Below are positions 37,931 to 59,014 of a stretch of 64,000 nt of DNA, in pieces. Made by a program: the position numbers and the translations under genes. Positions within the stretch are counted from its first letter, which is position 1, and the number at the start of each line of letters is the position of its first letter. Below the pieces are notes generated by a model. The model was not told the origin of the DNA and made no database searches. It was given only the letters and a program-made list of their open reading frames with translations. The stretch comes from Alphaproteobacteria bacterium (GTDB lineage Bacteria > Pseudomonadota > Alphaproteobacteria > UBA828), in the NCBI GenBank assembly GCA_965221125.1, contig CBDCRW010000004.1, positions 704,001 through 768,000 of the forward strand. Direction: 5' to 3'.

Positions 37931-38730
37931 GGCCGCAGTTCCTCGAGCGCGTGCTGCAGGTGGTCGGCACTGACGGTCCTCGCCTCGTCGAGAGCGGCGG
38001 CGGAGAGCGCGTAGTGGGCGATGCGGTTGATCTGGCGCGGCAGGCCGCGCGCGCCCTGGAACAGGGCCTCGACGGCGGGCTCTTCGAACAGCGGCAGTTC
38101 GCATCCCGCGAGCCTGAGGCGGTGCTTGATGTAAGCGTCGACCTCGTCGCGGTCGAGACCGCTCAGGTGGTGGCGGACGACGAGGCGCTGGCTGAGGGAT
38201 TCGTGCATGGCCATGGCCAGGCGGCGCCTGAGCTCGGTCAGACCGACGAGGACGAGGCACAGGCGCTGCTCTGCATCCATGGCGAAGTTGGTGAGCAGGC
38301 GCAGGTCCTCAAGGACGTCGTTGCGCAGATGATGGGCCTCGTCGATGACGAGGACCGGCAGCTGCTTGGCCTCGGTGACGAGGCGGGAGATCTCGTTTCG
38401 GATGGCCTGATAGGCCGAGGCGCGGGAGCGCTCGATGGGCAGGCCGATCTCCCACGCGATCGCCTTGTACATGTCGAGCACGTTGCCCGTGGTCAGCGAG
38501 ACGTAGTGGACCCGGTAGAGGCCTGGATGAAGCTGCGCGGTCAGATGCCGGCACACGGTGGTCTTGCCGGAGCCCACCTCGCCGGTGAGCAGGCCGATGC
38601 CGCGCAGGTCGATGAGGTGGCCGAGCCTGGCCTCGGCCTCGCGGCGCGCGTTGGACTCGAACAGCTCGTCGGTCTCTGCCGGGGTCTCGAAGGGCAGGCG
38701 GGTGAAGGCGAAGTGGCGCAGGTACATCAC
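37927..38730 (-). CDS. ExeA/TnsC-like ATPase, copy 2
   Basis: Translation identical to 15262-16065. Confidence 0.9.
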   Translation of the reverse strand: MMYLRHFAFTRLPFETPAETDELFESNARREAEARLGHLIDLRGIGLLTGEVGSGKTTVCRHLTAQLHPGLYRVHYVSLTTGNVLDMYKAIAWEIGLPIERSRASAYQAIRNEISRLVTEAKQLPVLVIDEAHHLRNDVLEDLRLLTNFAMDAEQRLCLVLVGLTELRRRLAMAMHESLSQRLVVRHHLSGLDRDEVDAYIKHRLRLAGCELPLFEEPAVEALFQGARGLPRQINRIAHYALSAAALDEARTVSADHLQHALEELRP

Positions 38731-40055
38731 TCGTCCTCCTTCTTGTCCTTGAGGTTGCGCATGGCCAGCGGCGAGGGCGGAGGCTCGGGCGCCGGATCTT
38801 CGGCCTCGATCTCCCTGGCCGGGTAGGTGCGCCTGACGGCGGTATTGGCGTAGGCGTCGAGAGGGCTGGCCTTGCCGGCCGGCTTGCCGTCATGGACCAC
38901 GTCGAGAGGGCGCGAGGGCGGCGCGGCCGGGTCGTAGCGCAGGATGACGTTCTGACCCACCAGGAGGGCGTCGACCTCGTAGACGCGGCCGTTCAGACTA
39001 ACGGTGCGGTCCTTGTAGACACGGCGCCTGGCCTCGAAGAGGAACAGATCGTCGAGGTCCATGGTGGCGTCGGGATAGCGCACGCCGGCCGAGGCCAGCG
39101 CCCACTGCTCAAGCGGGGTGCGCCCCTCGTCGAGGCCACGATGCGGGCTGTTGTGATACTCCCCCTCGATCCAGGCCCAGAGGCTGCGGTTGAGCGCCTC
39201 CAGGCTGTCGACGTCATCGCCGAGGTGGCGGAGCCAGCCGGCCCGGAGGGTGCGGAAGAAGCGCTCGATCTTACCCTTTCCCGCTGGCTGGAACGCCCTT
39301 GCGTGAATCAACGCAACGCCGAGCCTGGCGCAGACCAGGGAGAGATGACGGGAGCGGTAGGCGCTTCCGTTGTCGACGTACAAGCGGGCCGGGAGGCCGC
39401 GCCGGATCAGCGCGTCCTTGAACACCGGCAGGAACGCCGCAGTGTTCTCCGCCATGGCGAAGGCGGCGAACGGGATGACGCGGGTGGCGTCGTCGATGAA
39501 GGCGATCAGGTAGGTCTTGCGCCGGGTTCGGCCGTGCCGGACCTTGGGTCCGTGCATGACGTCGCTCATCCACATCTCGCCGGCATGCCGGAAGGCGAAG
39601 CGGCGGCGATCCGCCCCGTCGGGCGGCTTCTTGTCGAACAGGCCCTCGCGGCTGAAGAGGCGGTGCACGGTGGACGAGGCGAGCGGGTGGTCGATACCCT
39701 CCTCCTTGACCTTCTGGATGATGGCGCGAACCGACAATGCGTCGTTCTCGGTCTTCAGCGCGATGAGGCGCTCGGCGACCTCGGGCGGCAGCCGCCGGGG
39801 CTTCCCCCGGTCGGTGCGGGGCTTGGGGTAGAGCGCGTCGAAGCCGCCGTAGCGGTAGTCCTTGATCCAGCGCCGCATGGTCTCGGCGGCGACCCGGGTC
39901 CTGGTGGTTCCGGGGATCGTGTAGGTCTTCTCGGCTTTGGCGCGCATCATCGCGCCGGCACCCGGTGCACCCACGGGCAGATGCACCAGATCGGCGATGA
40001 CGTCGTATCGGAAGAGCGCGATCTGTTGGCGAAGGTCGTCGTCTGAGCTGTTCAT
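38727..40055 (-). CDS. DDE transposase, copy 2
   Basis: Translation identical to 13937-15265. Confidence 0.93.
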   Translation of the reverse strand: MNSSDDDLRQQIALFRYDVIADLVHLPVGAPGAGAMMRAKAEKTYTIPGTTRTRVAAETMRRWIKDYRYGGFDALYPKPRTDRGKPRRLPPEVAERLIALKTENDALSVRAIIQKVKEEGIDHPLASSTVHRLFSREGLFDKKPPDGADRRRFAFRHAGEMWMSDVMHGPKVRHGRTRRKTYLIAFIDDATRVIPFAAFAMAENTAAFLPVFKDALIRRGLPARLYVDNGSAYRSRHLSLVCARLGVALIHARAFQPAGKGKIERFFRTLRAGWLRHLGDDVDSLEALNRSLWAWIEGEYHNSPHRGLDEGRTPLEQWALASAGVRYPDATMDLDDLFLFEARRRVYKDRTVSLNGRVYEVDALLVGQNVILRYDPAAPPSRPLDVVHDGKPAGKASPLDAYANTAVRRTYPAREIEAEDPAPEPPPSPLAMRNLKDKKEDE

Positions 40056-40736: not shown

Positions 40737-42711
40737 CGGCCCTGGCCCGGCGGGAGTTCCGTCCCCCGGGCCTCTCTTTGTCGTTCAGTGAGAGGCCAAG
40801 ATTACGGACGCTCCCCGCCGCCGCCAAGCTGTGGAGCCGTGGACGCGTCCTGCGGACCGATCGGCGTCCTGCGGACCGTGTGGACAGCCCGTGGACAAGC
40901 TGGCGCTTGCCCACCGCCTGACCACACTCGCCGATCTCGCGCCCACCGCTCCACAGCTTCAACAGCAATGAGGATTCTGCTGAGGATCAAAAAAATGCCG
41001 CAGGCAGCGTCCTTCCCGCACTCGGCCACCATCCCGGGAAATCCACCAACCAATCAAAGTGAGAAAAAAACCCGTGCTTCTATCCGGCTAGACCGGAAAA
41101 CAACAGCTGAGGTCCTCGCCAGAAAGCCAAGAATGCTCACGCCATCGGATGTCGACGGTCTTGCGGGCAGCCGGGTCGAAGGATATTTCGCCGTGGCTGT
41201 GAGCTTCCCTCTTCCATGCTGGGTATTGGTGCCCGTGCAGCGTCTGGCCTCACGCGAGTCTCCTTCGGGCATGGCGCTCCTAAGAGCCTTGAGCGACAAG
41301 ACTTTCAGCGCGGAGTGGACGAATGAGTATGTTTCGCTGATTCGTCGATCAAGTCGTGATGTGATTGATCGGTCATACGACCAGCTGGTGCAACGAGCAA
41401 TGGACGGGCGGGGCCTGTAGAGTCGTACCTAGGTTCTCCGGGTGTTGTGGCGCCACTCGGTGCGCTTCGGTAACTGCTCCCTGACTTCTTCGAGATGATC
41501 GACGGATTTGATTCAGTCGTCGTCGACGGAGTCGGTATCATTACCAGAATAGGCGTATCGGCTTTCGTACGGCGCGAGAGCACGGCACAGGAATTTCTCG
41601 ATTCGTGTCCCCTGCTTCGGGACGGCGGGGAGGCCGAGCGGCTCGGACACGCTCTCGGCCCCGTGCGACCGTGGTGCTCCGGGGCCCTCTCGCCCTTGGT
41701 TGGCGTTATGTCGGGCGGGCGAAGAGGGTCGTGTCCGCAGACAGGGGAAACCAGTCGAATCTTCCGGTCGAGGACCTGGGACGGTGGGAAGGCCAGACCC
41801 GAGGGCATAGTATGGGTTGGCGGCGACGGGAGAATTGCTGTGGCGGCGCGATGCGAGGGAGCAGAAAGGCCGGACCGTACAGTGGGCTCCCGCATCGTCT
41901 GACAGACGCCATTGGCGACCGCGCGATGTGGAAGCACTGGTGGACGGCTAGCCGAGCGTCGGAAACGTCGCTCGCGCTCGAGGCCGGCGGCGTTGCCGGG
42001 GACGGGATCGAAAATCCACGTGATCCGCGTGTTTCGTGCTAACGGTCTAGCGGATGCGCACTATCGGTGTGCAAGATGGACGAGGCGCACCGGGACCACG
42101 ACGATCCGGGGAGGGAACGGGTGAACAGGGCTGACGTCGCCGGTCGTGTCCGTCGGCGAGACCGAATCGGACCCGTCAGCAACGAGTGACAGGCGAGGAG
42201 GTGGGTGTTGCGGATGTTGAAGCCCGGCGACTACGGTACGATGATGGCTGTCCGGCTTGGCTGCTCAGCTTGCCGGGAGGAGCCAAGCGGGCACCCCGGG
42301 TTGACGGCAGGCAGCCTTCACGGCTACCGCTAATGTGGCGAATGAGGCCGGAACACGGCAGGGGGCGGCCATCTTGCAGTTGCCGGTTCCTCTCAAGGCC
42401 TCAACGGTATAGGCTGATCAACACTACTGCCGAGGGCTGACAGATGTCCACGCGCCCTTGCCGAGAAGGCAAAGTCAAGTCCGGACGTACACATGCCGGG
42501 AGTGCCTCCAGACAGACCGCGACGACCAGGGGACTTGGTGCTGCACGCGCAACCACCATCGCCCTGAACGTGCTGCCAAAGCGCTTTCGCGTGTGCTTGT
42601 GAACCCATCTCGCGTTGACGTACGTCAGATACGCCAACTCCTTATGCACTCACCACACAACCGCCACGTAAAGTATAGCAATCGCGAATGCACTTCGAGG
42701 AAACAGCCATA

Positions 42712-43173
42712 ATGACTTCAGATAGTCCGCCATTCAGGCTTTCCCTCTGGAAAGATTACGTGCCGCAACGAACACTTATTGCGACGCAAGTTGAAGGAAA
42801 TAGCCAGGAACCGAAGGTAATTGTTCAAGAAAATTTACAAGAAGAGATTTACTCGTGGCATACACTAGAAGATCCGTTTGGTGGTGTTACCGACTCCGAG
42901 CTACGACAAAAGCTTCGCCACGCTCTTGTGGAGCGCTTGAATCCGTCACTTCCACCGTCTCAGAGGGGTATTGAAGTACTCGAGGAATTCGCACGGCTAG
43001 CGGGAAAGGCTATCGTCGATCGTAAGGTAGAATGGGTCTGGGGACACGGTGCTTCCCAGCATAACGATGCGATGGTAGAGCCACTAAACTCCTTATTGGC
43101 ACTCAAGTTGCATGTGGATTGGCTTCTGGCCTGCTTCATTGCGCGACCCGGAATCTCGGTGTCGGTACGATGA
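42712..43173 (+). CDS. Hypothetical protein, first gene of eight-gene operon
   Basis: GAGGA RBS; stop overlaps the next ATG. Confidence 0.75.
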   Translation: MTSDSPPFRLSLWKDYVPQRTLIATQVEGNSQEPKVIVQENLQEEIYSWHTLEDPFGGVTDSELRQKLRHALVERLNPSLPPSQRGIEVLEEFARLAGKAIVDRKVEWVWGHGASQHNDAMVEPLNSLLALKLHVDWLLACFIARPGISVSVR

Positions 43174-45218
43174 TGTCCTTTCATCTGAATTCACCCGCAG
43201 AAGCAGAAGCGGCGATAGCTAATCTTCTCAAGGAGGAATATTCCAAGCCAAATGGTCAATGTTCCATTTGCGTTCGGGACGATGGTGCCTTTTTGAACCA
43301 AGAATGGCTCAATCTTGGTGTCCTTTACTTTCCTGACTTGCCAAAGGATTCCGATGACTTGGAAGAGTATGAGGCGTGGCAAAATCTTGTGAAACTCGGA
43401 GCGTTCGAGTGGCATATAGCGGACTATAAGGCGATCGAAGAAAAATTAGCGCATTTGCTTGGCCATGAGATCGGCAAGGGTGATTTTCATTTGGGTACTC
43501 TAACTCGCGATATCTCATGTATTGCGGTGAGGACCGGCTTGTTGCTGCCTACATTCGATCCGGCGGCGCTGGACGAGATGCCCTATCGTCGATCAACGAC
43601 TATCATATCAGATACATCTGGTGTAGTACAGGGTGGTCTGGACTTTGTTGCCTCACATCTGAGTCCTGCTGCCAGAATAAAGGTTCCTTCAATCGTGCAT
43701 ATGGAGTTGGTTGGCGCCGCTGAGAACTACTTTAGTCTTCGCAGAGCTTCTAAGACCAAGAATGCCGCGCGCCGCCGTAAGGAACTTGTGGAACACTTAA
43801 AGAGCCAAGGCGGACAACGCTCATTGCTGCGTCTGGAGCTTCACCAAAGTACGGAAGTCGAGCGCACGTTTTTGCTCGGCGACCCGCTGCGGGAAGCTTT
43901 TGCAACAGATAACGACCGTGAATTGTCTGGTCTAAACATTAGTTTGGCAATTAGGTCTTACGCAGACCGTCTAATTTTAGAAGCGGCCCGTCAACATCAA
44001 GCGCATATGGGCCCCGGGCATGAAGTGCGACTACTAACCGCGGATCAGGGTTTGGCTAGAATGGCGTTAGCAGAGGGCATCCGGCCTTTATATTTCGGGA
44101 CAATTGACGCGGGAAGATTTTTTGGCAACTGCTTGACTGGAAGAACTTTTGACCCGTACCAAGGATCGGTGCAAGGGATCTCAATAGCGACGGTACTTTG
44201 GGAATTTGCTACGGCGTTTGGTTCAGCGCGACTGCAAGGGAAACAGACGGGGAGTGAGTTTTGCGTTTCGGCGCTTGGAGAGGATATGTCGTGGGCACCA
44301 TATCATTCCTTAGAAGACCTGCTTTGGTGTCGTCGGACCAATGGCGCGCCCAAGACCGACCCATCCAAAGTTGCCAAGAGGGAGGCTCGGGCCAAGGGGG
44401 ATGATCACGGCGAGGGGGTGGCTAAGCGGCCGAGCCGTACTACGACCTACCGACGCTTTGATGTCTCGAAGTTAGTCCGGCTGGTTTGCGAGCTGGATGA
44501 CGTACAGAAAATGGACGAAGAGGCAGTTGTAGGGATTGTTCAAACGAAGCATACCCGAGGGTTCCAGGAATACGAACGGTTTTTGTTGTCAGGAGGATTT
44601 ATCTCAGAGTCAGGAGGAATTTGGACTGCGGAGCCTCCCCTAATGGATATGTCCGCGGCGCTTCGGAACGAGAACGTGGAGGCTGTTCGTGACTTGTTGG
44701 GCGCTACACCTTCTTTCAGCGACTTCATGGGACTGCTTGGGAATGCAGGCCTCGGGGAGCCGTTGGATACGGAGTTCGCCGGTCGGAGCTCATCCACCTA
44801 TCGAACGTTGGGCGAAATTGTGCATGTCTGCGCCGCGGTTCGGGGAAAGGGGATTTACTCGACGGCGACCGTGCCGGATGCAGAGGGCTTTGCGGAGATC
44901 GCGCTAAAGCGGTTTCGCCAGCTCGACAAAGGCGACGGGTTGGTGTCCACGGGCAAGTGGCTGGAAACGCTTGTTGCAGAGGACGGCATTCATCCCGAAG
45001 TAGCTCGGAAGCTATTGGAGGAAGCAAGACAAAGACGCTTGTTGCGAAGGTCGACAGAGGGATCGACGATGCAAATGCGGTATAGAACGCACATCGTGCA
45101 TATCTTGCGGGTGGTATCCGGTGTTCCGACGGTAGTTCCTGTGCACCTGTATAGGGGAGATTACCTGATTCAGGGCAAGGCCAGTGCGAGCTTGCGGATT
45201 GAAGGAGGCGATCAATGA
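43170..45218 (+). CDS. PIN-domain nuclease-like protein with extended C-terminus
   Basis: PIN acidic motifs IISDTS, VHMEL, ADRLIL, LLTADQGL. Confidence 0.72.
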   Translation: MMSFHLNSPAEAEAAIANLLKEEYSKPNGQCSICVRDDGAFLNQEWLNLGVLYFPDLPKDSDDLEEYEAWQNLVKLGAFEWHIADYKAIEEKLAHLLGHEIGKGDFHLGTLTRDISCIAVRTGLLLPTFDPAALDEMPYRRSTTIISDTSGVVQGGLDFVASHLSPAARIKVPSIVHMELVGAAENYFSLRRASKTKNAARRRKELVEHLKSQGGQRSLLRLELHQSTEVERTFLLGDPLREAFATDNDRELSGLNISLAIRSYADRLILEAARQHQAHMGPGHEVRLLTADQGLARMALAEGIRPLYFGTIDAGRFFGNCLTGRTFDPYQGSVQGISIATVLWEFATAFGSARLQGKQTGSEFCVSALGEDMSWAPYHSLEDLLWCRRTNGAPKTDPSKVAKREARAKGDDHGEGVAKRPSRTTTYRRFDVSKLVRLVCELDDVQKMDEEAVVGIVQTKHTRGFQEYERFLLSGGFISESGGIWTAEPPLMDMSAALRNENVEAVRDLLGATPSFSDFMGLLGNAGLGEPLDTEFAGRSSSTYRTLGEIVHVCAAVRGKGIYSTATVPDAEGFAEIALKRFRQLDKGDGLVSTGKWLETLVAEDGIHPEVARKLLEEARQRRLLRRSTEGSTMQMRYRTHIVHILRVVSGVPTVVPVHLYRGDYLIQGKASASLRIEGGDQ

Positions 45219-46336
45219 GCCTACGAGATAAGCTTCAGCAGGCGCGACGCTCCAGCGAGGGCTCGCCACGGGGGATGTTTGAGCGCTTCGGAGTAACAGC
45301 GAATCCGTTCCCTGCGGCAAGCCAAACGTCGGGGAATCCTCATTATCCGCAAGAAGAAGCAGATGAACTGGCGGAAACGCAAATTGCTGCGTTCGTAAGG
45401 GACAATAGGTCACAGAGCTTGACTGTCGTCGGTTCTCAAGGAGTAGGAAAGACGAATTTTCTAAATTATTTTGAAGAACAATTGACTGATGTCGCAGACG
45501 AATTAGAGGGTTACTATGTTGTTCGATACCTAGCGGATCCTGAAAATACGTTTGATGGCACAATTCACAAATTGCTTCAAGAGTTAGGCGCAGAGCATTT
45601 TGCGAGACTAGCAGAATCGTTGAGTGAGGATCAAAATGCGATACGAGTGGCACGAAGTCAAGATCTTCAGACAGCACTACGTAGGCTTGCAGAAACAGAT
45701 GAGAATGAAGATAGAGCAGAAACTATTGAGTTGATGCTGGCTTGGCTGTTAGGACACCGAGTCCTAAAGATACATCGGGAATGGCTAGGAGTGAATTTTC
45801 GACAAGATACAGTCGAGGCAAAAACTGCGACTTTTCGTGATATCGTAGAAGTGAGCAGCGAAGCGGGAATTCTAAAGGGAATTTTTTTGCTGTTAGACGA
45901 ACTGGAAAAGCAGGATGGCGTTTTGGGCCCGAGAGCAGTGGTAAGATACCTGTCGGCAATCAGGGCGATTATTGATGCCTTGCCGCGAGGCTTGTTTTTG
46001 ATGCTGGCGGTGACGCCGGATGCGCTATTGCGATACACTGCTGCACTGCCAGCGTTACGCGGAAGACTGGAAAATCAGGTAGTATTGGAAGCTTTGCAAG
46101 ATGAAGAGGAAGCAGTAGAACTGGCAGAGTTCTATATCGACAAGGCTCGCGAGAAGGCAAGGGAAGATCGTAATCGGAGGGGAGGAAGTGAAGAAATCTT
46201 GTCGAGGCGTAAGATTGAGAAATGTTTTCAGACGCTTTGGGAACGAGCGGAGGAAAGAGGAGATGACGGTGTCAGGCAACGAGAGTTCTTGAACGCACTT
46301 CATCTTCGTACCGAAAAAGAGCTGCGGGGAGATTGA
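45215..46336 (+). CDS. P-loop AAA+ ATPase
   Basis: NPFP, Walker A GSQGVGKT, Walker B LLLDELE, PALRGR. Confidence 0.88.
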   Translation: MSLRDKLQQARRSSEGSPRGMFERFGVTANPFPAASQTSGNPHYPQEEADELAETQIAAFVRDNRSQSLTVVGSQGVGKTNFLNYFEEQLTDVADELEGYYVVRYLADPENTFDGTIHKLLQELGAEHFARLAESLSEDQNAIRVARSQDLQTALRRLAETDENEDRAETIELMLAWLLGHRVLKIHREWLGVNFRQDTVEAKTATFRDIVEVSSEAGILKGIFLLLDELEKQDGVLGPRAVVRYLSAIRAIIDALPRGLFLMLAVTPDALLRYTAALPALRGRLENQVVLEALQDEEEAVELAEFYIDKAREKAREDRNRRGGSEEILSRRKIEKCFQTLWERAEERGDDGVRQREFLNALHLRTEKELRGD

Positions 46337-46369: not shown

Positions 46370-47845
46370 ATGAGTGGTGTGAGCGAGGACGGGATGGCGG
46401 CTGTAGCAATCGAAAAACAAGATGGAAGCGCGGTCGGGAGAAATACGCCAAATTCTCAGCAAGGGGCACAAACGAAGAGGACAGGGAGGGGATTCGTGAT
46501 AAGCGGTGCTCCAAGGCTGGTAGTGTCTGGGCGAATTCGTAGGGAGTCCGAGAAGCACGATCCAGATCGGGAATATCGGTTTGGTTATGCTGATGAACAC
46601 CATTCGGAATTACCGCACGTGGTCAAGTTCTCGGGTGGCAGATCGAGTGGCATGCTGCTGTTGACACTCTTGGCAAATGACATACTGAAGGCCGAACGAG
46701 GGGATGTCGTGTTGTTCAATAATACGGCAAGCGAGCATCCCCAGACTTACGACTTTGTAAGAGAGTGTAAGGCAGTAACGGAGCAGTACGGTATTCCTTT
46801 CTACCTTGTGGAGTTTCAGACCTATGAAGACGCCCGCAAGGGCGAGTGGACACGGCTGCCGAGCTACCGCCTCGTGAATAGCAAGCCGTGGTCAGAAACG
46901 AATCCGGACGGGGTCCATTGGCGGGGCGAGGTTTTCGAGGAGGTGATGTCGTGGTCGGGGTTCGTGCCAAACCAGTTCCGGCGTATCTGCACGACTAACA
47001 TGAAGTTGGGTGCAACCCGTATGTTCCTGCGCGACTGGTTGGCTTGCAAAGAGTCGATTCCGCGGCTTGGACACTTCGGATCGGGGTGCCGTATAGACGG
47101 GAAGGCTATGTATGCGCGTCACAGGCGCAACGGCGGAGAGGTGCCCGAAGAAATCTACATTGCCAAGAAGCGGTATGGCTGGAGCCGTCCGTATGTCCGG
47201 CCAGAACAGCGATACGAGAGTTTTTCGAAGGCATGGCGACCGTTCGAAAACAAGTGGCTAGCGGGCAAGGCGCATGGCGACCTGGCGGTGTTTGGCAAGG
47301 GAGGCGTCGAGTATGTGGCGTTTGTCGGCCTGCGTTGCGATGAGCCCGCAAGAGTCGGAAGGGTGAAGGAACGCAATAATGGGCCCGAAGCATCCGGATA
47401 CGATGGCGAGCATGTGTACATGCCCCTCGTGGACATGCACGTGGCGGCAGCGGATGTGAATGCGTTTTGGGCCCGACAGGAGTTGGACCTATGTTTGCCC
47501 CCGGACAGTGGGCTCTCGAACTGTGTGTACTGCTTCTTGAAAGGCGGTGCGACGCTGCGGAAAGTGCAACGTGAAATGGCGGGCGCGAAGCGCCAGGAAG
47601 CTCGGCTAGGCTACGGTCCACTCGACGGGACGCCGTGCGACGTCGCATGGTGGCAACGCATGGAAGAGGTGTACGGGCGCGACCTCGTAGCGGAGGAGCG
47701 GAAAATTCAGTCGGAGTTGGAGCATGATTTCCTGGGCTTCTTCGGTGCGGGAAGCCGATTTACGTATCGGTTGCTCGGAGAAGCCGACGAATCGGAGTTG
47801 GAGCAGTTCGACGCCAGTTTGTTGCCCTGCGATTGCACGGACTAG
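46370..47845 (+). CDS. PP-loop / PAPS-reductase-like protein with Cys clusters (probable Fe-S)
   Basis: FSGGRSSG, NTASEH..TY.F, RICTTNMK, GLRCDE..R, SNCVYCFLK, C-terminal PCDCTD; true start may be downstream. Confidence 0.85.
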   Translation: MSGVSEDGMAAVAIEKQDGSAVGRNTPNSQQGAQTKRTGRGFVISGAPRLVVSGRIRRESEKHDPDREYRFGYADEHHSELPHVVKFSGGRSSGMLLLTLLANDILKAERGDVVLFNNTASEHPQTYDFVRECKAVTEQYGIPFYLVEFQTYEDARKGEWTRLPSYRLVNSKPWSETNPDGVHWRGEVFEEVMSWSGFVPNQFRRICTTNMKLGATRMFLRDWLACKESIPRLGHFGSGCRIDGKAMYARHRRNGGEVPEEIYIAKKRYGWSRPYVRPEQRYESFSKAWRPFENKWLAGKAHGDLAVFGKGGVEYVAFVGLRCDEPARVGRVKERNNGPEASGYDGEHVYMPLVDMHVAAADVNAFWARQELDLCLPPDSGLSNCVYCFLKGGATLRKVQREMAGAKRQEARLGYGPLDGTPCDVAWWQRMEEVYGRDLVAEERKIQSELEHDFLGFFGAGSRFTYRLLGEADESELEQFDASLLPCDCTD

Positions 47846-47847
47846 AC

Positions 47848-48987
47848 GTGGCGGAACGGCCGGTCTATCTGGATTGTCAAGCCACGACGCCGCCTGACCC
47901 GAGAGTGGTCACGGCGATAGTCGAAGCGTTTGATGCATTCGGGAACCCACACGGGCGTCAACACGTATACGGGCGAACGGCGGCGGACGCCATAGACGTG
48001 GCTCGGAGTCGGGTGGCCGGACTTCTGAACACGTACCCCAATCGAATCGTATTCACATCCGGAGCAACGGAATCCTGCAACCTCGCACTGCGGGGCGTGG
48101 CGCGCGCCGCCGCTCCCAAGCGACGGCGTATCATTACACTCGCTACAGAACATGCGGCGGTGCTCGAGACTGTAGAGGATCTAGGACGACACGGTTTCGA
48201 GGCGATCGTCTTGCCGGTCAGGCCGGACGGGCTCGTAGACCTCGATTGTCTCGACCAGGTGGTCGACGACGAGACGCTGATCGTTTCCGTCATGGCAGTG
48301 AACAACGAAATCGGTGTGATCCAGCCGCTCGCCAAAGTCGCTTCGATCTGCCGGCGCTATGGCGCACTGTTCCATACTGATGCAACGCAAGCGCCCGCTC
48401 GCATCGAAGTGGATGTCGAGACTTGGGGAGCCGACCTCTTGTCGATTTCGTCGCACAAGCTGTACGGACCAAAGGGCATTGGGGCGCTGTACGTGGCCGA
48501 TGACGGATTGCTTGGACCCACGTTGACCGGAGGTGGTCAAGAGCGTGGCATGCGGTCGGGAACAGTGCCGACGGAGCTCGCGTGCGGCTTCGGAGAGGCT
48601 GCGGAGCTGGCCGGAGACGAGCGGCCTGCTGACGCCGAGCGGATGACTCGTCTTGCCGCCAAGTTGCGGACCGGTATCGATGCGATGGAGGCGGATGTAC
48701 GCTATTTCGGTTCAGACAAGGAGCGGGCGCCTGGGACGTTAAACTTTGGGTTCCCTGGGATCTCCGGCGACAAGCTCGTTGCGATGGTGGAGACCGAGAT
48801 TGCGATCTCGAGCGCCTCCGCGTGTTCCTCCGGAACTGCAGGAGTTTCTCATGTGCTAGCCGCGCTTGGTTGCGGCCGGTCTGAAGCACTTACCGGCGTG
48901 CGTGTGGGATTGGGCCGATTTACGACGGAGACAGACATCGAGATTGCTTTGACGGCGATTGGTCGGGCGGTAGGTACGGCTGCATGA
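47848..48987 (+). CDS. Cysteine desulfurase (IscS/DndA/SspA-like)
   Basis: YLD.QATT, FTSGATE, HTDATQ, SSHKLYGPKG (PLP Lys), SSASACSS (catalytic Cys). Confidence 0.93.
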   Translation: MAERPVYLDCQATTPPDPRVVTAIVEAFDAFGNPHGRQHVYGRTAADAIDVARSRVAGLLNTYPNRIVFTSGATESCNLALRGVARAAAPKRRRIITLATEHAAVLETVEDLGRHGFEAIVLPVRPDGLVDLDCLDQVVDDETLIVSVMAVNNEIGVIQPLAKVASICRRYGALFHTDATQAPARIEVDVETWGADLLSISSHKLYGPKGIGALYVADDGLLGPTLTGGGQERGMRSGTVPTELACGFGEAAELAGDERPADAERMTRLAAKLRTGIDAMEADVRYFGSDKERAPGTLNFGFPGISGDKLVAMVETEIAISSASACSSGTAGVSHVLAALGCGRSEALTGVRVGLGRFTTETDIEIALTAIGRAVGTAA

Positions 48988-49000
48988 AGAGATTGGGACG

Positions 49001-51313
49001 ATGGGATTGAAGCGAGCGATCATCGACGAGATGAAGGTGAAGCAGCTGCGCAAGGCGGTGCAGCAACTGGAATTGGCTGTTGATAGCTATAGGGACAAGG
49101 AATCACTTGCCGGTGCTCTCAGAAAGTCGCGTCGAGCTACAGCCGAGACGTTGGTGGAATTCCTGTCCGAGAAGGACGTAAAGCGGCTGTGCGATCGTCA
49201 GGGGGTTGAGTCGAGGGGACGTCGGCGGGAGCTGATAGCGCGGCTGTTGGAGTCAACGGGTACAGCCTCTTCAGCCGGGGACTCTGGGGAGACGCAAAGA
49301 CCAAGGGCAGGAACGAACGCAAGAAGGCGCCGGACGCGGGGCCGATCGAGTAAGGCTGCACCTGACCTCCTGTTCGGCCACAGTACGGATCGTACTGGGT
49401 TCACGCCGGCAGGAATCGCCGCGTTTTCGGATCTCAGACCGGCTGCGGTAGTGCGGGAACTCATTCAGAACTCGTTGGACGCAGCCTTGATTGAGGCTAA
49501 CGAAGCCTGCGCGGTCGTAAGGTTTGAGCGAAGTACGTGCACGTTAGAGGAAATCCCGGGAATCGAAAGTTACCGTACGGCGTTTGAGCGAGCTGTGGAG
49601 GAGCAAACTCCTTCTGGTAGTGCACGCTCCGTAGTTGAGCGGATACGGCGGACATTACTAGAGGAATCGCACGATCTGCTGTGTGTTATCGACAACGGAG
49701 TGGGGCTTGACGGCAGGCGAATGTCGGCTTTGCTGAGTGACGGGGTGAGCGACAAAGGGGGCAACGCTTCTGGGACTTTCGGCAACGGACACTCGGCGGT
49801 GCTTCCCGCATCGAACCTCCGGTATGTGATGTACGGTGGGCTAACGGCCGATGGTCGCACCTATGGTGCCGGCCAAGCGGTGCTGGCGTCGCACCGGGAC
49901 GAGGGTGATTGGCGCAGTCGATCTGGGCGCGGGGTATATCTGGAGTCATTTAAGCCTAGTGCGGTCGACGTACCGTTCACTCTGGCCTCTGAAGATGCAA
50001 TCCCGCCGATGGTCGTGTCCGCGATTAACAGGATTCGTGCTTCGTACGGACACGGGGCGGCGGTGGTTATCCCGGCGTTTAATAACTTTGAGCACGTGCA
50101 ATCTTTGCGAGAGGCAGTGTTCAAGGCAGCTAGTTTTAACTTCTTTCAGGCGATTCAGGAAGGACGTCTGGTGGTGGAGGTGGAGGATCAGGAGGAAAGC
50201 GGTGTACTCGACACGCTGAGGTTAAGGGAAGTGCTTACGCCGTATCGCGACGAAATGCGCTCTGGTCGTTCGGGTGCGTTTCTTTCCGGACGAAAGGCAA
50301 ATGAAGCCTACGAAACTCTCGTCAATGGGGAGGAACACGAGATTGAGACTACGCAGGGAAACGTAGCGGTGCGCTTGCTTTGCCGGGAAACGGGTCGGCG
50401 TAGCGTGGGGCTATGCAGGAACGGGATGTGGATTACGGATGACCTGCCGATGTTTCAGAACGCGTTTGCGGATCGACAGCCATTTCAGGCGCTGATCCTA
50501 CTCACCTCGGATCGCGAGGATGGTTTCTATGAACTAATTCGAGAGGCGGAGACGCCGCTCCACGATAAGCTGGCGCCGAAACAGATGGACCCAGTTCGAA
50601 GAAAGGCTCTTCGGGACGCGCTGCGTGAGATTCGGGATGGGATCGCGGAATTGGTCCCGCCTTCGACAGAGGACGTTTACAGCCCAAAGGACATCTTGGC
50701 CTTTCAGTTTGAAGATGTAGAGGGGCAGGGGCGAGGTGGCCGCCAGCCGTCCTTTTGGGGCCGGGTGGGAAGCACTCGACGGTCGACGCTGGTGAGGCGG
50801 AAGACAGGGAAGCGGGAGGCTGGAGGAACCGGGGAAGGCGGCGGCGGCGGAGGAGGACGCAAGAAGCGTGAGGGACGGATTGTGACGGAGCGGATATTCC
50901 GGATCGCTTCGGTGCCCACCGACGAAGGTGGGCGCACAGTTCATGTGGAATGTACAGAGGAGTTTGAGGACGCAGAATTGCGGGTATTCGTAGACGAGAA
51001 CGTGGATGCGACTTGCGATCGGCAAACACGTGCTCAGGCGGCGGCGGTGTTGCTGTCGAACGTGAAGGTGGATGGACGCCCGTTGTCTGAGGAAGAACTG
51101 ATCGGAAACGACGACGGGACTGTGGGTGCGAAGTTGGGTTGCCTGCAGGCAAATGCGCGGGTCGTGGTGGAGACCGAGTATGCGATACCTGCAGCGGCTA
51201 TGCGTCTCCCAAGTGGACAAGAGCCCGCACTTCGGTTCGAGGTACAAAGCAGTCGACGGGTTTCATCCAAGGACAGTAGCGAAATTGATGACGAGGTGCT
51301 GTCCGATGGATGA
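49001..51313 (+). CDS. GHKL-fold ATPase-like protein with N-terminal SAP-like domain
   Basis: LCDRQGVESRGRRRELIARL (SAP-like); N-box RELIQNSLDA, G1 IDNGVGL, G2 GTFGNG. Confidence 0.78.
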   Translation: MGLKRAIIDEMKVKQLRKAVQQLELAVDSYRDKESLAGALRKSRRATAETLVEFLSEKDVKRLCDRQGVESRGRRRELIARLLESTGTASSAGDSGETQRPRAGTNARRRRTRGRSSKAAPDLLFGHSTDRTGFTPAGIAAFSDLRPAAVVRELIQNSLDAALIEANEACAVVRFERSTCTLEEIPGIESYRTAFERAVEEQTPSGSARSVVERIRRTLLEESHDLLCVIDNGVGLDGRRMSALLSDGVSDKGGNASGTFGNGHSAVLPASNLRYVMYGGLTADGRTYGAGQAVLASHRDEGDWRSRSGRGVYLESFKPSAVDVPFTLASEDAIPPMVVSAINRIRASYGHGAAVVIPAFNNFEHVQSLREAVFKAASFNFFQAIQEGRLVVEVEDQEESGVLDTLRLREVLTPYRDEMRSGRSGAFLSGRKANEAYETLVNGEEHEIETTQGNVAVRLLCRETGRRSVGLCRNGMWITDDLPMFQNAFADRQPFQALILLTSDREDGFYELIREAETPLHDKLAPKQMDPVRRKALRDALREIRDGIAELVPPSTEDVYSPKDILAFQFEDVEGQGRGGRQPSFWGRVGSTRRSTLVRRKTGKREAGGTGEGGGGGGGRKKREGRIVTERIFRIASVPTDEGGRTVHVECTEEFEDAELRVFVDENVDATCDRQTRAQAAAVLLSNVKVDGRPLSEEELIGNDDGTVGAKLGCLQANARVVVETEYAIPAAAMRLPSGQEPALRFEVQSSRRVSSKDSSEIDDEVLSDG

Positions 51314-52169
51314 GGTTGTGACAGAGGCGAGATCGCCAAATGCCGCGGTTCGGGGGCATGCGTTTCCGTCGCTGGAGTCGGGAAATACCTCTTTTCCGGA
51401 TGGACGATACGTAGTGGGATTCGAAGCTGGGGCTGACGCGAGTTCGTTTACTGTGAGGCATCGCATTGAGGGGGCTCCGCTGATTAACGACGTGATTACA
51501 GGCGGGCTCGCACAGTTCGTCTGCACGGTGGCCTCCCCAAACTCTTCGTATCGAGTAAGCCATGTGTCGGATGCCAGCTCCCACGTGATTGGTTGGCAAA
51601 GCGTGGATCTTGGCGAGCCGCCGATGTTCACGCCGATGGTAGTTGTTGCAAAACCGTTTACAAGGACGCTGGAATCGGCAAGAGACGGTGTCCACGAGCT
51701 CTGGCACGGTCGGACAGTCGCATTCCAACGAGGCATGAGGCTTGCGTTGAGCGATGTCGTGCTGATGCGTTCATCGGTTTTGAATATGTTGCTGTTCGAG
51801 CGGGATCCCGCGCTTTCAAATGGCGAGTTCCGTGTTGAGGCGGAGGATCGAGAGGGATTTCGATTTCGTGCGTATCTTGCCCCCGATCTTCACCAATTCC
51901 TAAGGTATGACACTGAAGACTTGCGGCGAAGTCACATCGTAACGCACATAGTGAGCGCGTGCTTTGGCGTGCTGAAGGCGGATTATGCGGAAGACGAGGA
52001 GGAAGACGGCGGTTGGCGGTCCTATCGCGGTCTCCAGGCTTTGGGGGAGATGTTGAAGGAACACGGTTTGCCGCACTGGTCAGAGGACGACTTCTCGCCG
52101 GAGTTGGCTGCCACCAAACTTTACCCGCACCGGGTCGATGAATCTCCCGGTTCAGCCGGAGAGGACTGA
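51306..52169 (+). CDS. Hypothetical protein
   Basis: Start overlaps the previous stop; beta-rich N-terminus after HAFPSL. Confidence 0.8.
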   Translation: MDEVVTEARSPNAAVRGHAFPSLESGNTSFPDGRYVVGFEAGADASSFTVRHRIEGAPLINDVITGGLAQFVCTVASPNSSYRVSHVSDASSHVIGWQSVDLGEPPMFTPMVVVAKPFTRTLESARDGVHELWHGRTVAFQRGMRLALSDVVLMRSSVLNMLLFERDPALSNGEFRVEAEDREGFRFRAYLAPDLHQFLRYDTEDLRRSHIVTHIVSACFGVLKADYAEDEEEDGGWRSYRGLQALGEMLKEHGLPHWSEDDFSPELAATKLYPHRVDESPGSAGED

Positions 52170-52177
52170 GACAATCC

Positions 52178-53056
52178 GTGTACGCTGAGTTCGATGATGC
52201 GGGATACACCAAACTACGTCGATCGCTGATCCGAAAGGCGGCCAAGGGTTCTATTGCTCAACGGTCGTTTCTTGAGGCGGTACGCGATACCGGTAGGTTT
52301 TTGGCGCACATGAAGGACGTCGTAGGCGTACAGGAAGGTGAGGAACTGGAGCCGCTGGCGGATCGAATGTCGGAGGCAGAGTTCGGGAATCCACCTTCTG
52401 ACACCGAGCGGCGCCTGTTCGAGGCCTGGGGTGGGTTGACACCGAGAGTTGCTTGTCGAACGGCATTTTGGGCACGCGTGACCTACCGGCACATTGAGAA
52501 CGGGCGGATAGAATCATCGTTCTTAGCGGCCAATGGTGGTGGCAACGTGAGCGGCGTACAGCGCATCGATGAAGCATTGAGTTCCACTGGCGAGAAAGCG
52601 ACTTTGGAGCTGGATAGATGCGTACGAACGGTGCTCAGGCGGCTCGGTGGATTGCCTGAGGCGCGCGGGAATCGATCAGTCTACGTGAACTGCCCACTAG
52701 CACGGGCTTGGTGGCGGGAACGTTTGGTCGCGGAGATGGCGGGGGACGATGGTGACGATCTGGAACGGCAGATTCGCGCCGTGGTGCATCCCGAGAGCCA
52801 ACAATATTGGGAAGAGTTGGTAACTTTCGTTGTGTCGAGAAACTCGGTGTTCGGTTCGGTATCGGTTCGAGACACCTTAATTCGCACCCTCGCCATGGTC
52901 TTGGATGATAATCCTGATTCGCCAGTGCGAACGGCTGATGAACTAAGGCGTGTATGCCGATCTGTGAGCTCCATACAGGCGTCGGTCGAACTGAGTGTCG
53001 TGCCACCCCAGGAGGTGCAAACCATGATGCGGGGAATTGTCGAGGCTGTGGCGTAG
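52178..53056 (+). CDS. Hypothetical helical protein (possibly DUF6339-like)
   Basis: AFWA..T and LARAWW motifs; last gene of operon; family by resemblance only. Confidence 0.7.
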   Translation: MYAEFDDAGYTKLRRSLIRKAAKGSIAQRSFLEAVRDTGRFLAHMKDVVGVQEGEELEPLADRMSEAEFGNPPSDTERRLFEAWGGLTPRVACRTAFWARVTYRHIENGRIESSFLAANGGGNVSGVQRIDEALSSTGEKATLELDRCVRTVLRRLGGLPEARGNRSVYVNCPLARAWWRERLVAEMAGDDGDDLERQIRAVVHPESQQYWEELVTFVVSRNSVFGSVSVRDTLIRTLAMVLDDNPDSPVRTADELRRVCRSVSSIQASVELSVVPPQEVQTMMRGIVEAVA

Positions 53057-53067
53057 ACTGTGGGGGC

Positions 53068-54252
53068 TCATTGCACCGTGGTTTTGTCAGCACTCTGAAC
53101 GGACGACAGGTTCCCACCGATGCTCCCGGTGATCCGCGCGGCAGCGTTCTGGATGGAATCTCGGGCGAGGTGAGCGTACCGGGCGGTGGTCTGCACCTGC
53201 GTGTGACCGAGCAGCTTCCCGATCATGGTCAGGCTCTCGCCGAGCGCCAGCGCCCTCGAAGCATACGAATGACGAAGGTCGTGAATTCGCACGTCCTCCA
53301 GACCGGCGCGAGCGCGGATGCGGCGCCAGGGGCGCTGGAGATCGGTGATGTGGGAGCCCGGCAGCCTGCCGCGGATGACCCAGGGGTTGTCCTCCTCGCG
53401 GGGCACGGCCGCCAGCACGGCGCGGGCCTCGGGTCCGAGCGGCACGACCCGTCCGCCGGTCTTCGCGTCGGGGAGTTCGATGCAGTCGTCCTTGACGTAT
53501 TCCCAGCGCAAGAACTGGATCTCCGATAGCCGGCAGCCGGTCAGCAGCAGCAGACGGAAGGCGGCGACTGCGGAGGGCATCTCGCTCTCGGCCTCGGCGA
53601 GAACCTCGCCCAGGCGCTCGGTCTCCTCGGGCGAGAGGAACCGCTCGCGCTTGCTCTCCTTGTAGCGCTTGACGTGACGGCAGGGATTGGACCCGTCCGG
53701 CCGCAGGCCCCAGATTTCGGCGAGCGAGAACATCTTGGAGAGCACGCCGAGCGTCCGGTTCGCCTGGTAGGGCTTGTCGCGAAGGTCGAAGTGCAGCTTG
53801 GCGATGTCCTTGCGCTCCACGCCGGCGATCCGCATCTCGCCGATCGCGGGGTCGATGAACAGCTCCACCGACCGCCGGTATTCCCCCTGGGTGCTGGGCT
53901 TGCAATGGACGGGGACATACTCCTCGAGGAAGCGCCTGCCGAGATCGGCCATGACCGGCTCGGCCTCCGGCTTCGCGTCGGCATCGCGCGGGTCGATGCC
54001 CTTCTTCGCCTGGGCCAGGATCTCCAGCGCCGCGGCTCTCGCCTCGTCGGCGGTGATGCGCCCGTGCTGGCCGATGGTGAACCAGCGCAGCTTGCCGCGG
54101 ACGCGGGTCTGAAGGACGTAGTTCTTCCGACCCGACTTCCGGACGCGGAGGCCGAAGCCGGTCAGCTCCCCGTCCCAGTAGATAGTATCGGCGCCGTTGG
54201 CCTTGACGGCCTCGACGGCGCGTCTGGTGAGCTTGGGGATGCGGTTTGGCAT
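53068..54252 (-). CDS. Tyrosine integrase (island 3)
   Basis: TGCRLSE, IHDLRHSYAS, LLGHTQVQTTARY; adjacent to att 3. Confidence 0.95.
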   Translation of the reverse strand: MPNRIPKLTRRAVEAVKANGADTIYWDGELTGFGLRVRKSGRKNYVLQTRVRGKLRWFTIGQHGRITADEARAAALEILAQAKKGIDPRDADAKPEAEPVMADLGRRFLEEYVPVHCKPSTQGEYRRSVELFIDPAIGEMRIAGVERKDIAKLHFDLRDKPYQANRTLGVLSKMFSLAEIWGLRPDGSNPCRHVKRYKESKRERFLSPEETERLGEVLAEAESEMPSAVAAFRLLLLTGCRLSEIQFLRWEYVKDDCIELPDAKTGGRVVPLGPEARAVLAAVPREEDNPWVIRGRLPGSHITDLQRPWRRIRARAGLEDVRIHDLRHSYASRALALGESLTMIGKLLGHTQVQTTARYAHLARDSIQNAAARITGSIGGNLSSVQSADKTTVQ

Positions 54253-54292
54253 GGGACAAAATTCTTGACGTTGGAAGAGCAGTCTAGCAAGC

Positions 54293-54312
54293 TGGCAAAC
54301 TATTGGCAAACA
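54293..54312 (+). promoter_or_regulatory. Putative arm-type sites of integrase 3, right end
   Basis: TGGCAAACTATTGGCAAACA identical to 23918-23937. Confidence 0.7.
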
Positions 54313-54530: not shown

Positions 54531-54880
54531 CGGAAGGATTCTTCCGAAACGCAGTTCGGAATGCATTCGGAATGGAATCTGCGGGAACGCAGGAGGACAC
54601 CAGAGCATATGGGACCACGAAATCGGGGATTATTGGATTATGGCGACATGGTGACGGCGAGGGCGGCCAGCACGGAGGAATCTCCTAACGTGGGCGCGCT
54701 GCTGGTCCGAGCGATCGCCTCTCGCGTCTGCTTGCGAGCAGCTCACTATCGCGTGCGGCCTTTCGGCGGACTCTAGTTGCCCGATTGCGGAGTTCCTCAC
54801 GCCGAATCGGGCGGGCGACAAGCGTCTATGCCAACGCGCTGATGACCGCGTTTCAGGTTGTCCGTTCTCGAACACTACCT

Positions 54881-56108: not shown

Positions 56109-57371
56109 TCAAGGGCGATCCAGGAATGGGGCCCTTTTGGGCGAAGTGCCTCGACAATGTCTGCAGTCTCCGATGCGCGACCAGTACGTGGCCGCCGTCG
56201 GGCGCACGAGCTTCGCGAAGTCGATGTCGAGCCGGGCCACCGTGGCTTCGAGCTCGGGCCGGGCCTGGGGCTCGAAGGCGAGCTGGCCCTTCACCGTGCG
56301 CGCGACGCAGGCCGCGAACAGCGCCTGCTTGTCGGGCTCGGGCAAGGCCCTGAGCGCCGCGAAGGATTCGCCATCGTCTGCGATTGTCAGCCAGTCGAAC
56401 GGCAGGTGCGAGCGGTCCGCCAGCATCGCCTCGCCCGGCGACCAGTCCGCGAAATCCTCGTCGTTCATGCGGATGTTGGGCCGGTCCGGGGTCTCCTTGA
56501 CCGCGATGTCGAGGGCGTGGTCGTGGTAGCCCGGCGCGAACACCGAGCGGCCCATCTGGAACAGCGCGAGGTCGAAGGCGGCCTCGAAGTCGCCGGCGAG
56601 ATAGGCCTTGATGAGCGCGGTGCGGATCGCGCGCTGGTCGTCGGCGTGGCCGATGCCGACGCCCGCCTCCTTGCGCGCCTCGGCCTCGCGGTCCCTGGGC
56701 GACGCCATCGGCGTCGAGACGGACGGACCGGAGGTGTGAACGCCATGACCGGCAGTGTGGACGTCGTGGGCAGCTGCGTCCGGGTCGTGGCCATTGCCGG
56801 CCGAGGTTGCCGCGCTGCCGGGCCCCGCCTGCTTCGGCATGTCCTCGGGCTTCACCAGCCCCTGAACGACCTGAAGCGAGCCGTCCTGGGCGACGGTGAC
56901 GATGCAGCCCGCCATGCGGTGGACGATCGAGCGGTCCTGCTCGCGGTTGCCACAGGCGATGATCGCCGCCCCGGGCGGAGCCTCGTACTCGCCGATCTTG
57001 CGCTCCAGGCAGAACTGGAAAAGCGCGACCTGCACCATGGGGACGGAGGACGGGAGCTCGTCGAGGTTGACGAGGAACTGCGAGACGCTGTCGGTCGGCG
57101 GAAGGAATCCGGGCGGCGCCCAGCGTGTGCGGCCGTGCTCGTCGCGCCACGGGATGCCGCGCAGGTCCACGGGATCGAGGAGGGGGCCGCGGATGTCGAT
57201 GTACTCGTAGCCGAGCCGGTCGGCGGTCTGGTTCGCGACCTGACTCTTTCCGGTTCCCGGGCCGCCCCAGACCATGCAGGGCTGGCGGGCCTTGACCAGG
57301 GTGGCGAGGACTTCGGCGAGCTCGCTCGGGCGCAGCGTGTAGTCGGCGGAGATGGTTTCGGGAAGGGTCAT
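56109..57371 (-). pseudogene. Deletion fusion of MoxR AAA N-half and C-terminal part of ParB-like protein
   Basis: GGPGTGKS...ACGNRE..VHRM joins directly to AGCIVTVAQDGSLQVVQGLVKPED, which matches the late part of the 29265 ORF. Confidence 0.78.
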
Positions 57372-57628
57372 GGGCGGTCTCCGGATGGCGGGGAAGCGGG
57401 GCGGCCCGGACATCCTCCGAGCCTCGTCTGAACGCGCCCCGGAAGGGCCCACTCCCCTCCCGTGGGAGTTGCGGCAGGCGGGAGAAGCGGGTTACGCGCG
57501 TGGAGGGCGACCGGGCGAGAGTCGGGGCAAGGGCTGGTGGACAGCAGTGGCCGGTCGCGAGGGCGTCGAAACGGTCGGTAGTGCCAGGCCCATTGCCGCC
57601 CCGGCAGGCAGGGTGCTAGATATCGGCC

Positions 57629-58762: not shown

Positions 58763-59014
58763 GGATCGGCCTCTCCGGTGGCGACGCGGGGTCCGCTCTT
58801 CGGCCCCCTGGAATCGCCCGGAGGACGCCGGCCTCGAACGCCTGACGCCGAACCGCAGGACCATGCCGTGCGAAACGCCGGAGGCGCCGCTCGGGCAGGA
58901 TGGGCGCGGAATGACCGCTGCCGGAATCGAAATGGCCGGCGCTTCGTGCTAACCGTGGGCGCCGGCCTCGGCTATGGTCTGTAGGGAGAACTGGACAACG
59001 CAGGGAGAGAGCGG

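Follow-up and report, generated by a model that had tools for sequence, protein, structure and literature searches.

A PP-loop enzyme related to SspD heads a conserved gene cassette that may encode a DNA sulfur-modification module

Here, we present an analysis of a gene for a PP-loop enzyme of the PAPS-reductase fold and of the cassette that it heads, both located in a 64,000-nt stretch of contig CBDCRW010000004.1 (this whole stretch is referred to as the window, and coordinates are window positions). The gene is followed on the same strand by genes for a cysteine desulfurase, a GHKL-type ATPase, a protein with a predicted beta-sandwich (g286), and a divergent DUF6339 protein (g292) (Table 1). 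The guanine-plus-cytosine (GC) content of the cassette region is 52-60%, compared with 65-70% in the surrounding window, and the lower-GC island spans roughly 42-54 kb, with a tyrosine integrase gene as its 3' boundary. The island is bracketed by an imperfect direct repeat, the two copies of which could, on weak evidence, be att sites; no tRNA genes were found in the window.

Table 1. Genes and other features of the window, beginning with the cassette
Feature	Position	Strand	Remarks
PP-loop/PAPS-reductase-fold enzyme	46370..47845	+	491 aa; new SspD-like family (FAM)
Cysteine desulfurase, group I (IscS/NifS/DndA/SspA-like)	47848..48987	+	PADLOC SspA 5e-129, DndA 2e-127
GHKL-type ATPase	49001..51313	+	770 aa; N-box ELIQNSLDA, sacsin/MORC-like; PADLOC PDC-M33A 3e-37
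g286	51309..52169	+	286 aa; without known family; start overlaps GHKL stop; predicted beta-sandwich plus helices
g292, divergent DUF6339 protein	52178..53056	+	292 aa; family members match PF19866
BrxC/BrxD-type (Orc/Cdc6-like) AAA ATPase	45215..46336	+	373 aa; PF10923 32.2 bits, cut-off 22.2; directly 5' of PP-loop gene
Candidate nuclease	43119..45218	+	699 aa; weak PIN_4 match, 21.5 bits, cut-off 21.9
Tyrosine integrase	53068..54309	-	Abuts cassette 3' end; Arm-DNA-bind_3
Imperfect direct repeat	41711-41730 and 54807-54826		20 nt, 85% identity; brackets island with cassette and integrase
Canonical PAPS_reduct paralogues	31522-32436 and 57905-58864	both -	Separate clade of their own in tree; PADLOC BrxP 5e-17 and 2.5e-18
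ATPase-like partners of the paralogues	29265-31535 and 56109-57452	both -	GPPGxxKS P-loop
Tyrosine integrases with Arm-DNA-bind_3	677-1849 and 22493-23638	+ and -
Inverted copies, transposase plus RepA-like protein	13937-17102 and 36890-40055	+ and -	rve/Mu-type transposase (442 aa), AAA_25 RepA-like protein (456 aa); identical Pfam scores
IS66-family transposase ORF abutting DruA/DUF4338-domain ORF	24035-27375	-	820 aa and 311 aa
SMC/LmuB-like ATPase	34196-36274	+	1.3e-28; defence-like
Small ORF matching Avs2 N-terminus	33241-33810	+
Type III DNA methylase	59789-61666	+	1e-156
PDC-S45-like trypsin protease adjoining AAA_16 ATPase	1892-4151	-

The PP-loop enzyme contains KFSGGRSSG at residues 86-94 and SNCVYCF at residues 383-389 of its 491-aa open reading frame (ORF) and terminates in LLPCDCTD. 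A preliminary description of this gene had noted SGGRSS instead of SGGKDS, an NCVYC motif, a C-terminal PCDC, and large insertions, all of which are present; by profile alignment, the enzyme has ~200 extra residues compared with SspD (~35 within 143-186, ~85 at 226-310, and ~80 at the N-terminus). We scored residue conservation over 30 diverse members of the family to which the enzyme belongs, here called FAM. In all 28 ungapped rows, the PP-loop reads S-G-G-R-[S/T]-S, with S or T and never Asp at position 92, and S88, G90, R91, and S93 are invariant. Five cysteines (C207, C385, C388, C487, and C489) are invariant in all 30 members, as are the blocks R205-x-C207-T208...K212, G320-x-R322-x-D324-E325, N384-C385-x-x-C388, and C487-x-C489. 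C133 is invariant in 20 close homologues but is found in just 14 of the 30 diverse members. The unusual motifs of the enzyme are, thus, traits of the family and not chance. Consistent with the earlier remark that the enzyme differs from its backbone paralogues, the two other PAPS_reduct genes in the window carry canonical SGGKDS, RWCT, GMRAEES, and CSFC motifs. Conservation in the family starts at residue 48, and an ATG at 46394, which is preceded by a GAGGA Shine-Dalgarno sequence, may be the true start of the gene. The database version of the protein, P0001, is 408 aa long and lacks the first ~83 residues, its start being near Val84, immediately before the PP-loop; because ~36 conserved residues are lost in this form, its start is likely mis-called.

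Against Pfam, the enzyme scores 19.2 bits for PAPS_reduct (cut-off 22.5) over the first ~55 profile positions only, and PF01171 (ATP_bind_3) gives no hit at E <= 0.01. None of the NCBIfam families is matched above cut-off, the DndC and CysH models give no hit at E <= 0.01, and searching the window's genome with TIGR03183 (DndC) yielded nothing at E <= 1e-20. The PADLOC matches of the enzyme are weak (SspD, 2.9e-7; BrxP, 2.4e-5, over the PP-loop only). When the PADLOC models were run over the 30 diverse FAM members, SspD matched 29 (best 5.9e-12), BrxP 14, and DndC five, the latter two weakly. Among 10 FAM representatives scanned, six touch PAPS_reduct at E <= 0.01 and one exceeds the cut-off, and one relative, P0286, hits PF01171 at E 0.0088, which is under the cut-off. 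In P0286, which may be a gene-call artefact, the PP-loop domain is fused to Toprim and to part of a Topo IA domain. A word-indexed search gave 1228 FAM clusters at E <= 0.001 among 8000 candidates scored, and none of the 120 clusters listed has a precomputed Pfam domain or a usable name; searching 1.84 billion representatives with a profile yielded 1424 matches at E <= 0.001, of which 172 reached E <= 1e-30.

Our comparison set consisted of nine DndC, eight SspD, four CysH-like, and six TilS sequences, all taken from genomes in the window's phylum, plus TtcA and CysH of Escherichia coli. Using a 30-row FAM profile, hhalign matched SspD with a probability of 99.1% (E 8.3e-19, 184 columns), DndC with 79.8% (E 1.5e-5, 130 columns), TilS with 52% (E 1.4e-4, 63 columns, PP-loop only), and the four CysH-like sequences with 0.3%. 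The alignment of FAM with SspD pairs every catalytic motif (SGGxxS, FxxTxxExPxTYxF, LPxxxxRxCTxxLK, VGLRxDE, and SxCxxCF). Both have a cysteine pair at the C-terminus, CxxC 2-3 residues from the end in all eight SspD and CxC two residues from the end in all 30 FAM members; these pairs were equated by position, hhalign having left the tails unaligned. Because each of the eight SspD carries such a pair, the PCDC tail is an SspD-like trait and part of a common five-cysteine layout.

In a quick IQ-TREE phylogeny (61 rows, 313 columns) with TilS and TtcA rows as outgroup (support 92), FAM, DndC, SspD, CysH, and the two window paralogues each form a clade, with support values of 99, 99, 100, 96, and 99, respectively, in the Shimodaira-Hasegawa-like approximate likelihood ratio test (SH-aLRT). 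The phylogenetic check proposed in the preliminary description, therefore, bears out a clade of its own for FAM, nested in neither DndC nor SspD and with TilS and TtcA outside it; it does not resolve the mutual order of the clades. BrxP is represented by its PADLOC model only and is absent from the tree because 200 further genomes of the window's phylum yielded no true BrxP. Altogether, the sequence evidence shows that FAM is a distinct clade of the PAPS-reductase superfamily with SspD as its nearest known profile, and not a member of SspD, DndC, CysH, or TtcA, in line with the initial view of the enzyme as neither a typical DndC nor a typical CysH.

The AlphaFold2 model of the enzyme has a mean predicted local distance difference test (pLDDT) value of 70 and a predicted template modelling (pTM) score of 0.75. 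Foldseek against PDB gave no match at E <= 0.001 for this model or for that of g286, and comparing the PP-loop protein with the sequences in PDB by phmmer likewise produced no meaningful hit (best E 0.66). An exhaustive structure search had rows of the PAPS-reductase clade on top (Z 10.1-10.8; CysD 1zun, 10.8; APS reductase 2goy, 10.6; CysH 6vpu, 10.5), followed by the base thiolase NcsA (9.8), TilS (8.7), and the base thiolase TtuA (8.1); rows within 1 Z count as ties, and the top rows of this pLDDT 70 model are nearly tied. CysH and APS reductase have their fold in common with the enzyme, while hhalign detected no sequence-profile similarity to the CysH-like sequences over the reductase domain.

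The desulfurase gene begins 2 bp past the stop codon of the PP-loop gene, as originally reported: TAG at 47843-47845 is followed by 'ac' and a GTG at 47848. A TTG at 47833 is an alternative start, which would overlap the PP-loop gene. Counted from this TTG, the matches to SspA, DndA, and Aminotran_5 start at residue 11-12, in agreement with initiation at the GTG. The protein is IscS/NifS-like, yet it scores under all NCBIfam equivalog cut-offs (IscS, DndA, and NifS). SSHK and SSASAC, which we take to be the pyridoxal phosphate (PLP)-lysine motif and the catalytic-cysteine loop of the desulfurase, respectively, are readable in its translation.

Scanning one genome per species, we found 178 relatives of the PP-loop enzyme and studied the context of the best 80 loci, at which cassette genes were located by tblastn with the window proteins; some of these loci end at contig edges. 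The PP-loop gene is present at all 80 loci, the desulfurase gene at 70, and the genes for the GHKL ATPase, g286, and g292 at 72, 70, and 68, respectively, and the five genes have a conserved colinear order. In particular, the desulfurase gene follows the PP-loop gene at 70 of 80 loci, supporting the earlier claim that the enzyme is coupled to a dedicated desulfurase. The 80 loci all derive from metagenome-assembled genomes (MAGs) of at least nine phyla (47 Pseudomonadota, 12 Acidobacteriota, and six Gemmatimonadota, with Latescibacterota, Binatota, Spirochaetota, Chloroflexota, and others), and several of the host MAGs bear sponge-symbiont names. Relatives are 45-81% identical to the window protein. 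Across phyla the identity is 50-81%, which argues for frequent transfer among uncultured marine bacteria. Sampling 200 further genomes of the window's phylum turned up FAM in one. In a search for more loci with a methylase before the trio, the GHKL protein was matched in two of 400 other genomes of this phylum and, under a stricter filter, in none of 220 other genomes from the phylum of locus L002. In viral contigs, a scan for the PP-loop family gave two weak hits and one for the GHKL family gave none.

Flanking genes were clustered with all-against-all BLAST, and each cluster takes its name from the Pfam domains of one or two scanned members. A DUF262/GmrSD_N cluster is present at 19 of 80 loci (Pfam on two members), a DndB-like cluster flanks 10 (Pfam on two members), and a protein with a sigma70_r4 helix-turn-helix (HTH) domain occurs at 11. 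The desulfurase gene is missing from the cassette at three loci (L033, L041, and L062), where a DUF262/GmrSD_N protein has its place, and in genome G063. G063 also has a second, solitary FAM copy directly 3' of a topoisomerase III gene (L223 10609-12777, minus strand).

Exchange and fusion link the PP-loop enzyme to DNA methylases. At least 19 of the FAM clusters listed, and one more in a search for longer proteins, are fusions of a C5 methylase to the PP-loop domain. The N-terminal part of the fused representatives is a complete C5 cytosine DNA methylase, with intact FxGxGG, PCQ, and ENV motifs in P0176, and these fusions form a subclade inside FAM. A metagenome scan with P0176 returned only generic C5 methylases, and no kept locus matched past approximately residue 402, where its PP-loop part begins. 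In addition, one genome (G184) among 300 others of the window's phylum has canonical DUF6339; in it, an HhaI-like C5 methylase (E 5e-31), a GHKL protein, a g286-like protein, and DUF6339 are encoded in this order on one strand; a FAM gene is absent within ~10 kb of this locus. Thus, the PP-loop gene with the desulfurase gene occupies the slot of a DNA methylase before a separable trio. BREX type 4 follows the same logic, with BrxP replacing PglX (PMC12914056), and Dnd modification genes are exchangeable with C5 methylases, methylase swaps and associations being found in phosphorothioate (PT) systems (PMC10853773).

In most relatives of the GHKL protein, conservation does not extend to its N-terminal ~130 residues. 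A weak sacsin-like domain is matched in this protein, and the match to PDC-M33A of PADLOC (E 3e-37) covers residues 130-558; no cassette gene matched other PDC-M33 components in PADLOC at E <= 0.01, and we found no paper containing the term PDC-M33. The model of g286 has an N-terminal beta-sandwich and C-terminal helices, and its structural matches are to generic FN3/Ig-like beta-sandwiches only (Z <= 8.4). PF19866 (DUF6339), a family that we found mentioned in no paper, is matched by 14 of 19 g292 family members (best E 4.9e-9). No PDB sequence was matched by profiles of g292 or g286, and in the ESM Atlas g292 had no usable hit and g286 only unnamed clusters. Complex prediction for residues 45-491 of the PP-loop enzyme with the DUF6339 protein gave no answer (score 0.00), which counts neither for nor against binding.

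With slightly better than even confidence, we suggest that the PP-loop enzyme inserts the sulfur in a DNA modification module, of which it would be one subunit, within a restriction-modification (R-M)-like defence island and that it most likely makes PT. Because the enzyme sits in a methylase slot, we favour a marking enzyme rather than an effector, and because its nearest enzymes (SspD, followed by BrxP and DndC) all make backbone PT, this is the most likely product. By analogy to the pairs SspA-SspD and DndA-DndC, we infer a sulfur relay in which the adjacent desulfurase would draw sulfur from cysteine as a persulfide and pass it to the PP-loop enzyme; SspA forms a complex with SspD (PMC7188994), and BrxP makes PT together with BrxC (PMC12914056). 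The five invariant cysteines (Cys207 of RxCT, the CxxC pair 385/388, and the tail CxC pair 487/489) would hold an Fe-S cluster and/or carry the persulfide. The PP-loop domain would then spend ATP on activating a DNA oxygen that is replaced by sulfur. According to this model, the PP-loop enzyme and the desulfurase would be the "self-marking" half of the island, while the trio, as a separable module, may either read the mark and restrict unmarked DNA or help to place the mark.

Several observations weigh against a PT-making module. The near-universal Asp of the PP-loop is replaced in SGGR[S/T]S, and for this reason the ATP chemistry of FAM could differ from that of its relatives. FAM is not nested in the SspD or DndC clade, and the P-loop NTPase and DNA-binding partners that all three known PT systems require (DndD/DndE, SspC/SspB, and BrxC) are absent from the conserved cassette; moreover, the structure search identified no nuclease or DNA-binding fold in the g286 model. 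The methylase-plus-trio arrangement is known from a single genome. Lastly, the PP-loop gene lacks the cassette at five of 80 loci (L066, L067, L068, L070, and L071), and at two of these (L068 and L070) a Pnkp/Hen1 RNA-repair pair lies near the solitary gene. The latter two loci (L068 12909-15608 and L070 11526-16114) are from Vicinamibacterales MAGs, with the FAM homologue a few kb from the Pnkp/Hen1 pair.

The preliminary description proposed that the product could be a thiolated base. In such a scenario, the PP-loop enzyme would thiolate a DNA base, e.g., through adenylation of a carbonyl group on a flipped-out pyrimidine, in the manner of TtcA, TtuA, and ThiI acting on tRNA. Its repeated fusion to a base-flipping C5 cytosine methylase that is catalytically intact would fit, as would the non-canonical PP-loop, the ~200 extra residues, the separate clade, the lack of DndD/E- or SspB/C-type partners, and the matches to NcsA and TtuA ~1-2.7 Z below the top structural hits. 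We know of no natural thiolated DNA base, which counts against this proposal. Also, the step from an atypical enzyme to a thiolated base is unsupported, as the sequence affinity of FAM is to SspD, BrxP, and DndC and not to ATP_bind_3 (99.1% for the SspD profile vs 52% for the TilS/TtcA type, the latter over 63 columns of the PP-loop; no PF01171 hit), the top structural matches are of the PAPS-reductase clade, and the cysteine pair that had been taken as odd occurs in eight of eight SspD, whose five-cysteine layout FAM matches. The DndB-like and DUF262 neighbours, furthermore, are the usual company of PT systems, and these likewise show methylase swaps and associations (PMC10853773). We consider base thiolation unlikely. 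We are equally doubtful that FAM makes some DNA sulfur mark other than ordinary Dnd/Ssp PT, such as a thiolated flipped-out cytosine or thymine, that is read by the GHKL/DUF6339 restriction trio; such thiolation could act alone or, in methylase-fused forms, in tandem with C5 methylation. If true, this would bring to light the first natural thio-nucleobase of DNA together with a new R-M class spread among sponge-associated bacteria.

It is distinctly improbable, in our view, that the substrate of the PP-loop enzyme and the desulfurase is RNA (tRNA or rRNA thiolation) or a small molecule and that mobile islands are no more than their vehicle. Pairs of this kind are standard tRNA-thiolation machinery, and the five loci without the cassette, including the two with Pnkp/Hen1 nearby, agree with this possibility; however, at least nine phyla retain the colinear arrangement with the GHKL trio, the enzyme is exchanged with and fused to DNA methylases, the neighbours include DndB-like, DUF262, topoisomerase III, and integrase genes, and the patchy distribution (one of 200 genomes of the window's phylum) is unlike that of a housekeeping RNA modifier. 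Alternatively, the desulfurase could only build an Fe-S cluster, with the PP-loop protein being an effector of sulfur-free chemistry (adenylation, amidation, or nucleotide depletion) on DNA or nucleotides. The Asp-less loop may signify altered chemistry, DndA assembles the cluster of DndC (PMC7188994), and three loci and G063 lack the desulfurase gene. Desulfurase loss is, on the other hand, usual in Dnd, Ssp, and BREX type 4, IscS or SufS substituting (PMC12914056, PMC12839542), and the methylase slot points to marking, arguing that this last explanation is highly improbable.

The methylase swap and the fusions make the function of the cassette directly testable, and the outcome bears on whether DNA sulfur chemistry exceeds PT. 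FAM is easily missed, having no Pfam or NCBIfam model and only weak PADLOC matches. A published neighbourhood screen needed BLAST E <= 1e-5 to DndC or SspD and a P-loop NTPase neighbour (PMC12914056) and, with these criteria, is unlikely to catch FAM. Our literature search found no paper combining a PAPS reductase with GHKL or MORC, and neither term is mentioned in the available text, supplements aside, of two comparative-genomics papers on Dnd and BREX (PMC10853773 and PMC12839542).

Among the neighbouring genes, those for the PIN-like protein and the BrxC/BrxD-like AAA ATPase upstream of the PP-loop gene were rejected as core parts of the system because they are present at none of the 80 related loci; we regard both as window-specific accessories. 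The two canonical paralogues of the PP-loop enzyme are 83% identical over 245 tree columns. The ATPase-like proteins next to them share 53% identity across their first ~200 residues and are without a Pfam or PADLOC family, and the second one looks shortened or rearranged; paralogue and partner may be another PAPS-reductase-based mobile-element system. With three tyrosine integrases in 64 kb, the window is an island mosaic, the further mobile-element and defence-like genes of which are listed in Table 1.

Among known systems, the PADLOC candidate PDC-M33 resembles the cassette in gene A (the GHKL protein) only. TtcA, TtuA, and NcsA are likewise PP-loop ATPases with a Cys-ligated Fe-S centre fed by a desulfurase, and TtuA and NcsA score Z 8.1-9.8 against the model; they differ in that FAM leaves PF01171 unmatched, is separated from this group in the tree, and is without tRNA-type gene context. 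BREX type 4 (BrxP, BrxC, BrxZ, and BrxL) is similar in that a PAPS-reductase-type enzyme replaces a methylase and a desulfurase is optional (PMC12914056). In contrast to BrxP as defined in PMC12914056 and PMC12839542, FAM has no DUF4007 fusion; PglZ and BrxL gave no hits, and the only BrxC/D-like gene is the short, window-specific one 5' of the PP-loop gene. DndABCDE also combines a desulfurase with a PAPS-reductase-type Fe-S enzyme, and DndB-like genes lie beside 10 FAM loci; however, the profile match to DndC is weak (E 1.5e-5), TIGR03183 is not hit, and no PADLOC hit to DndD or DndE was obtained among nine island proteins.

The best profile match is SspD of SspABCD-SspE/FGH, the system of single-strand DNA phosphorothioation, which has the same type of PAPS-reductase-fold PP-loop enzyme, an SspA-like desulfurase as partner, and the motif series SGGxxS, RxCT..K, G[LI]RxDE, and CxxC with a C-terminal cysteine pair. 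The enzymes differ in length (252-298 aa for SspD vs 491 aa for the window enzyme), in the PP-loop (SGGKDS or SGGRDS in seven of eight SspD collected vs SGGR[S/T]S in FAM), and in the tail pair (CxxC vs CxC). SspB (DUF4007) and SspC (Orc/Cdc6 AAA+) gave no PADLOC hit at E <= 0.01, and the GHKL protein, g286, and g292, which the cassette has instead, were matched to eight SspB and eight SspC with hhalign probabilities of at most 0.4%. Dnd, Ssp, and BREX type 4 are, to our knowledge, the three gene sets that sulfur-modify DNA, and in all of them a PAPS-reductase-type enzyme works with both a P-loop NTPase and a subunit that binds DNA. The cassette described here would be a fourth architecture, in which an Asp-less, SspD-like clade is joined to a GHKL trio in place of the usual partners.

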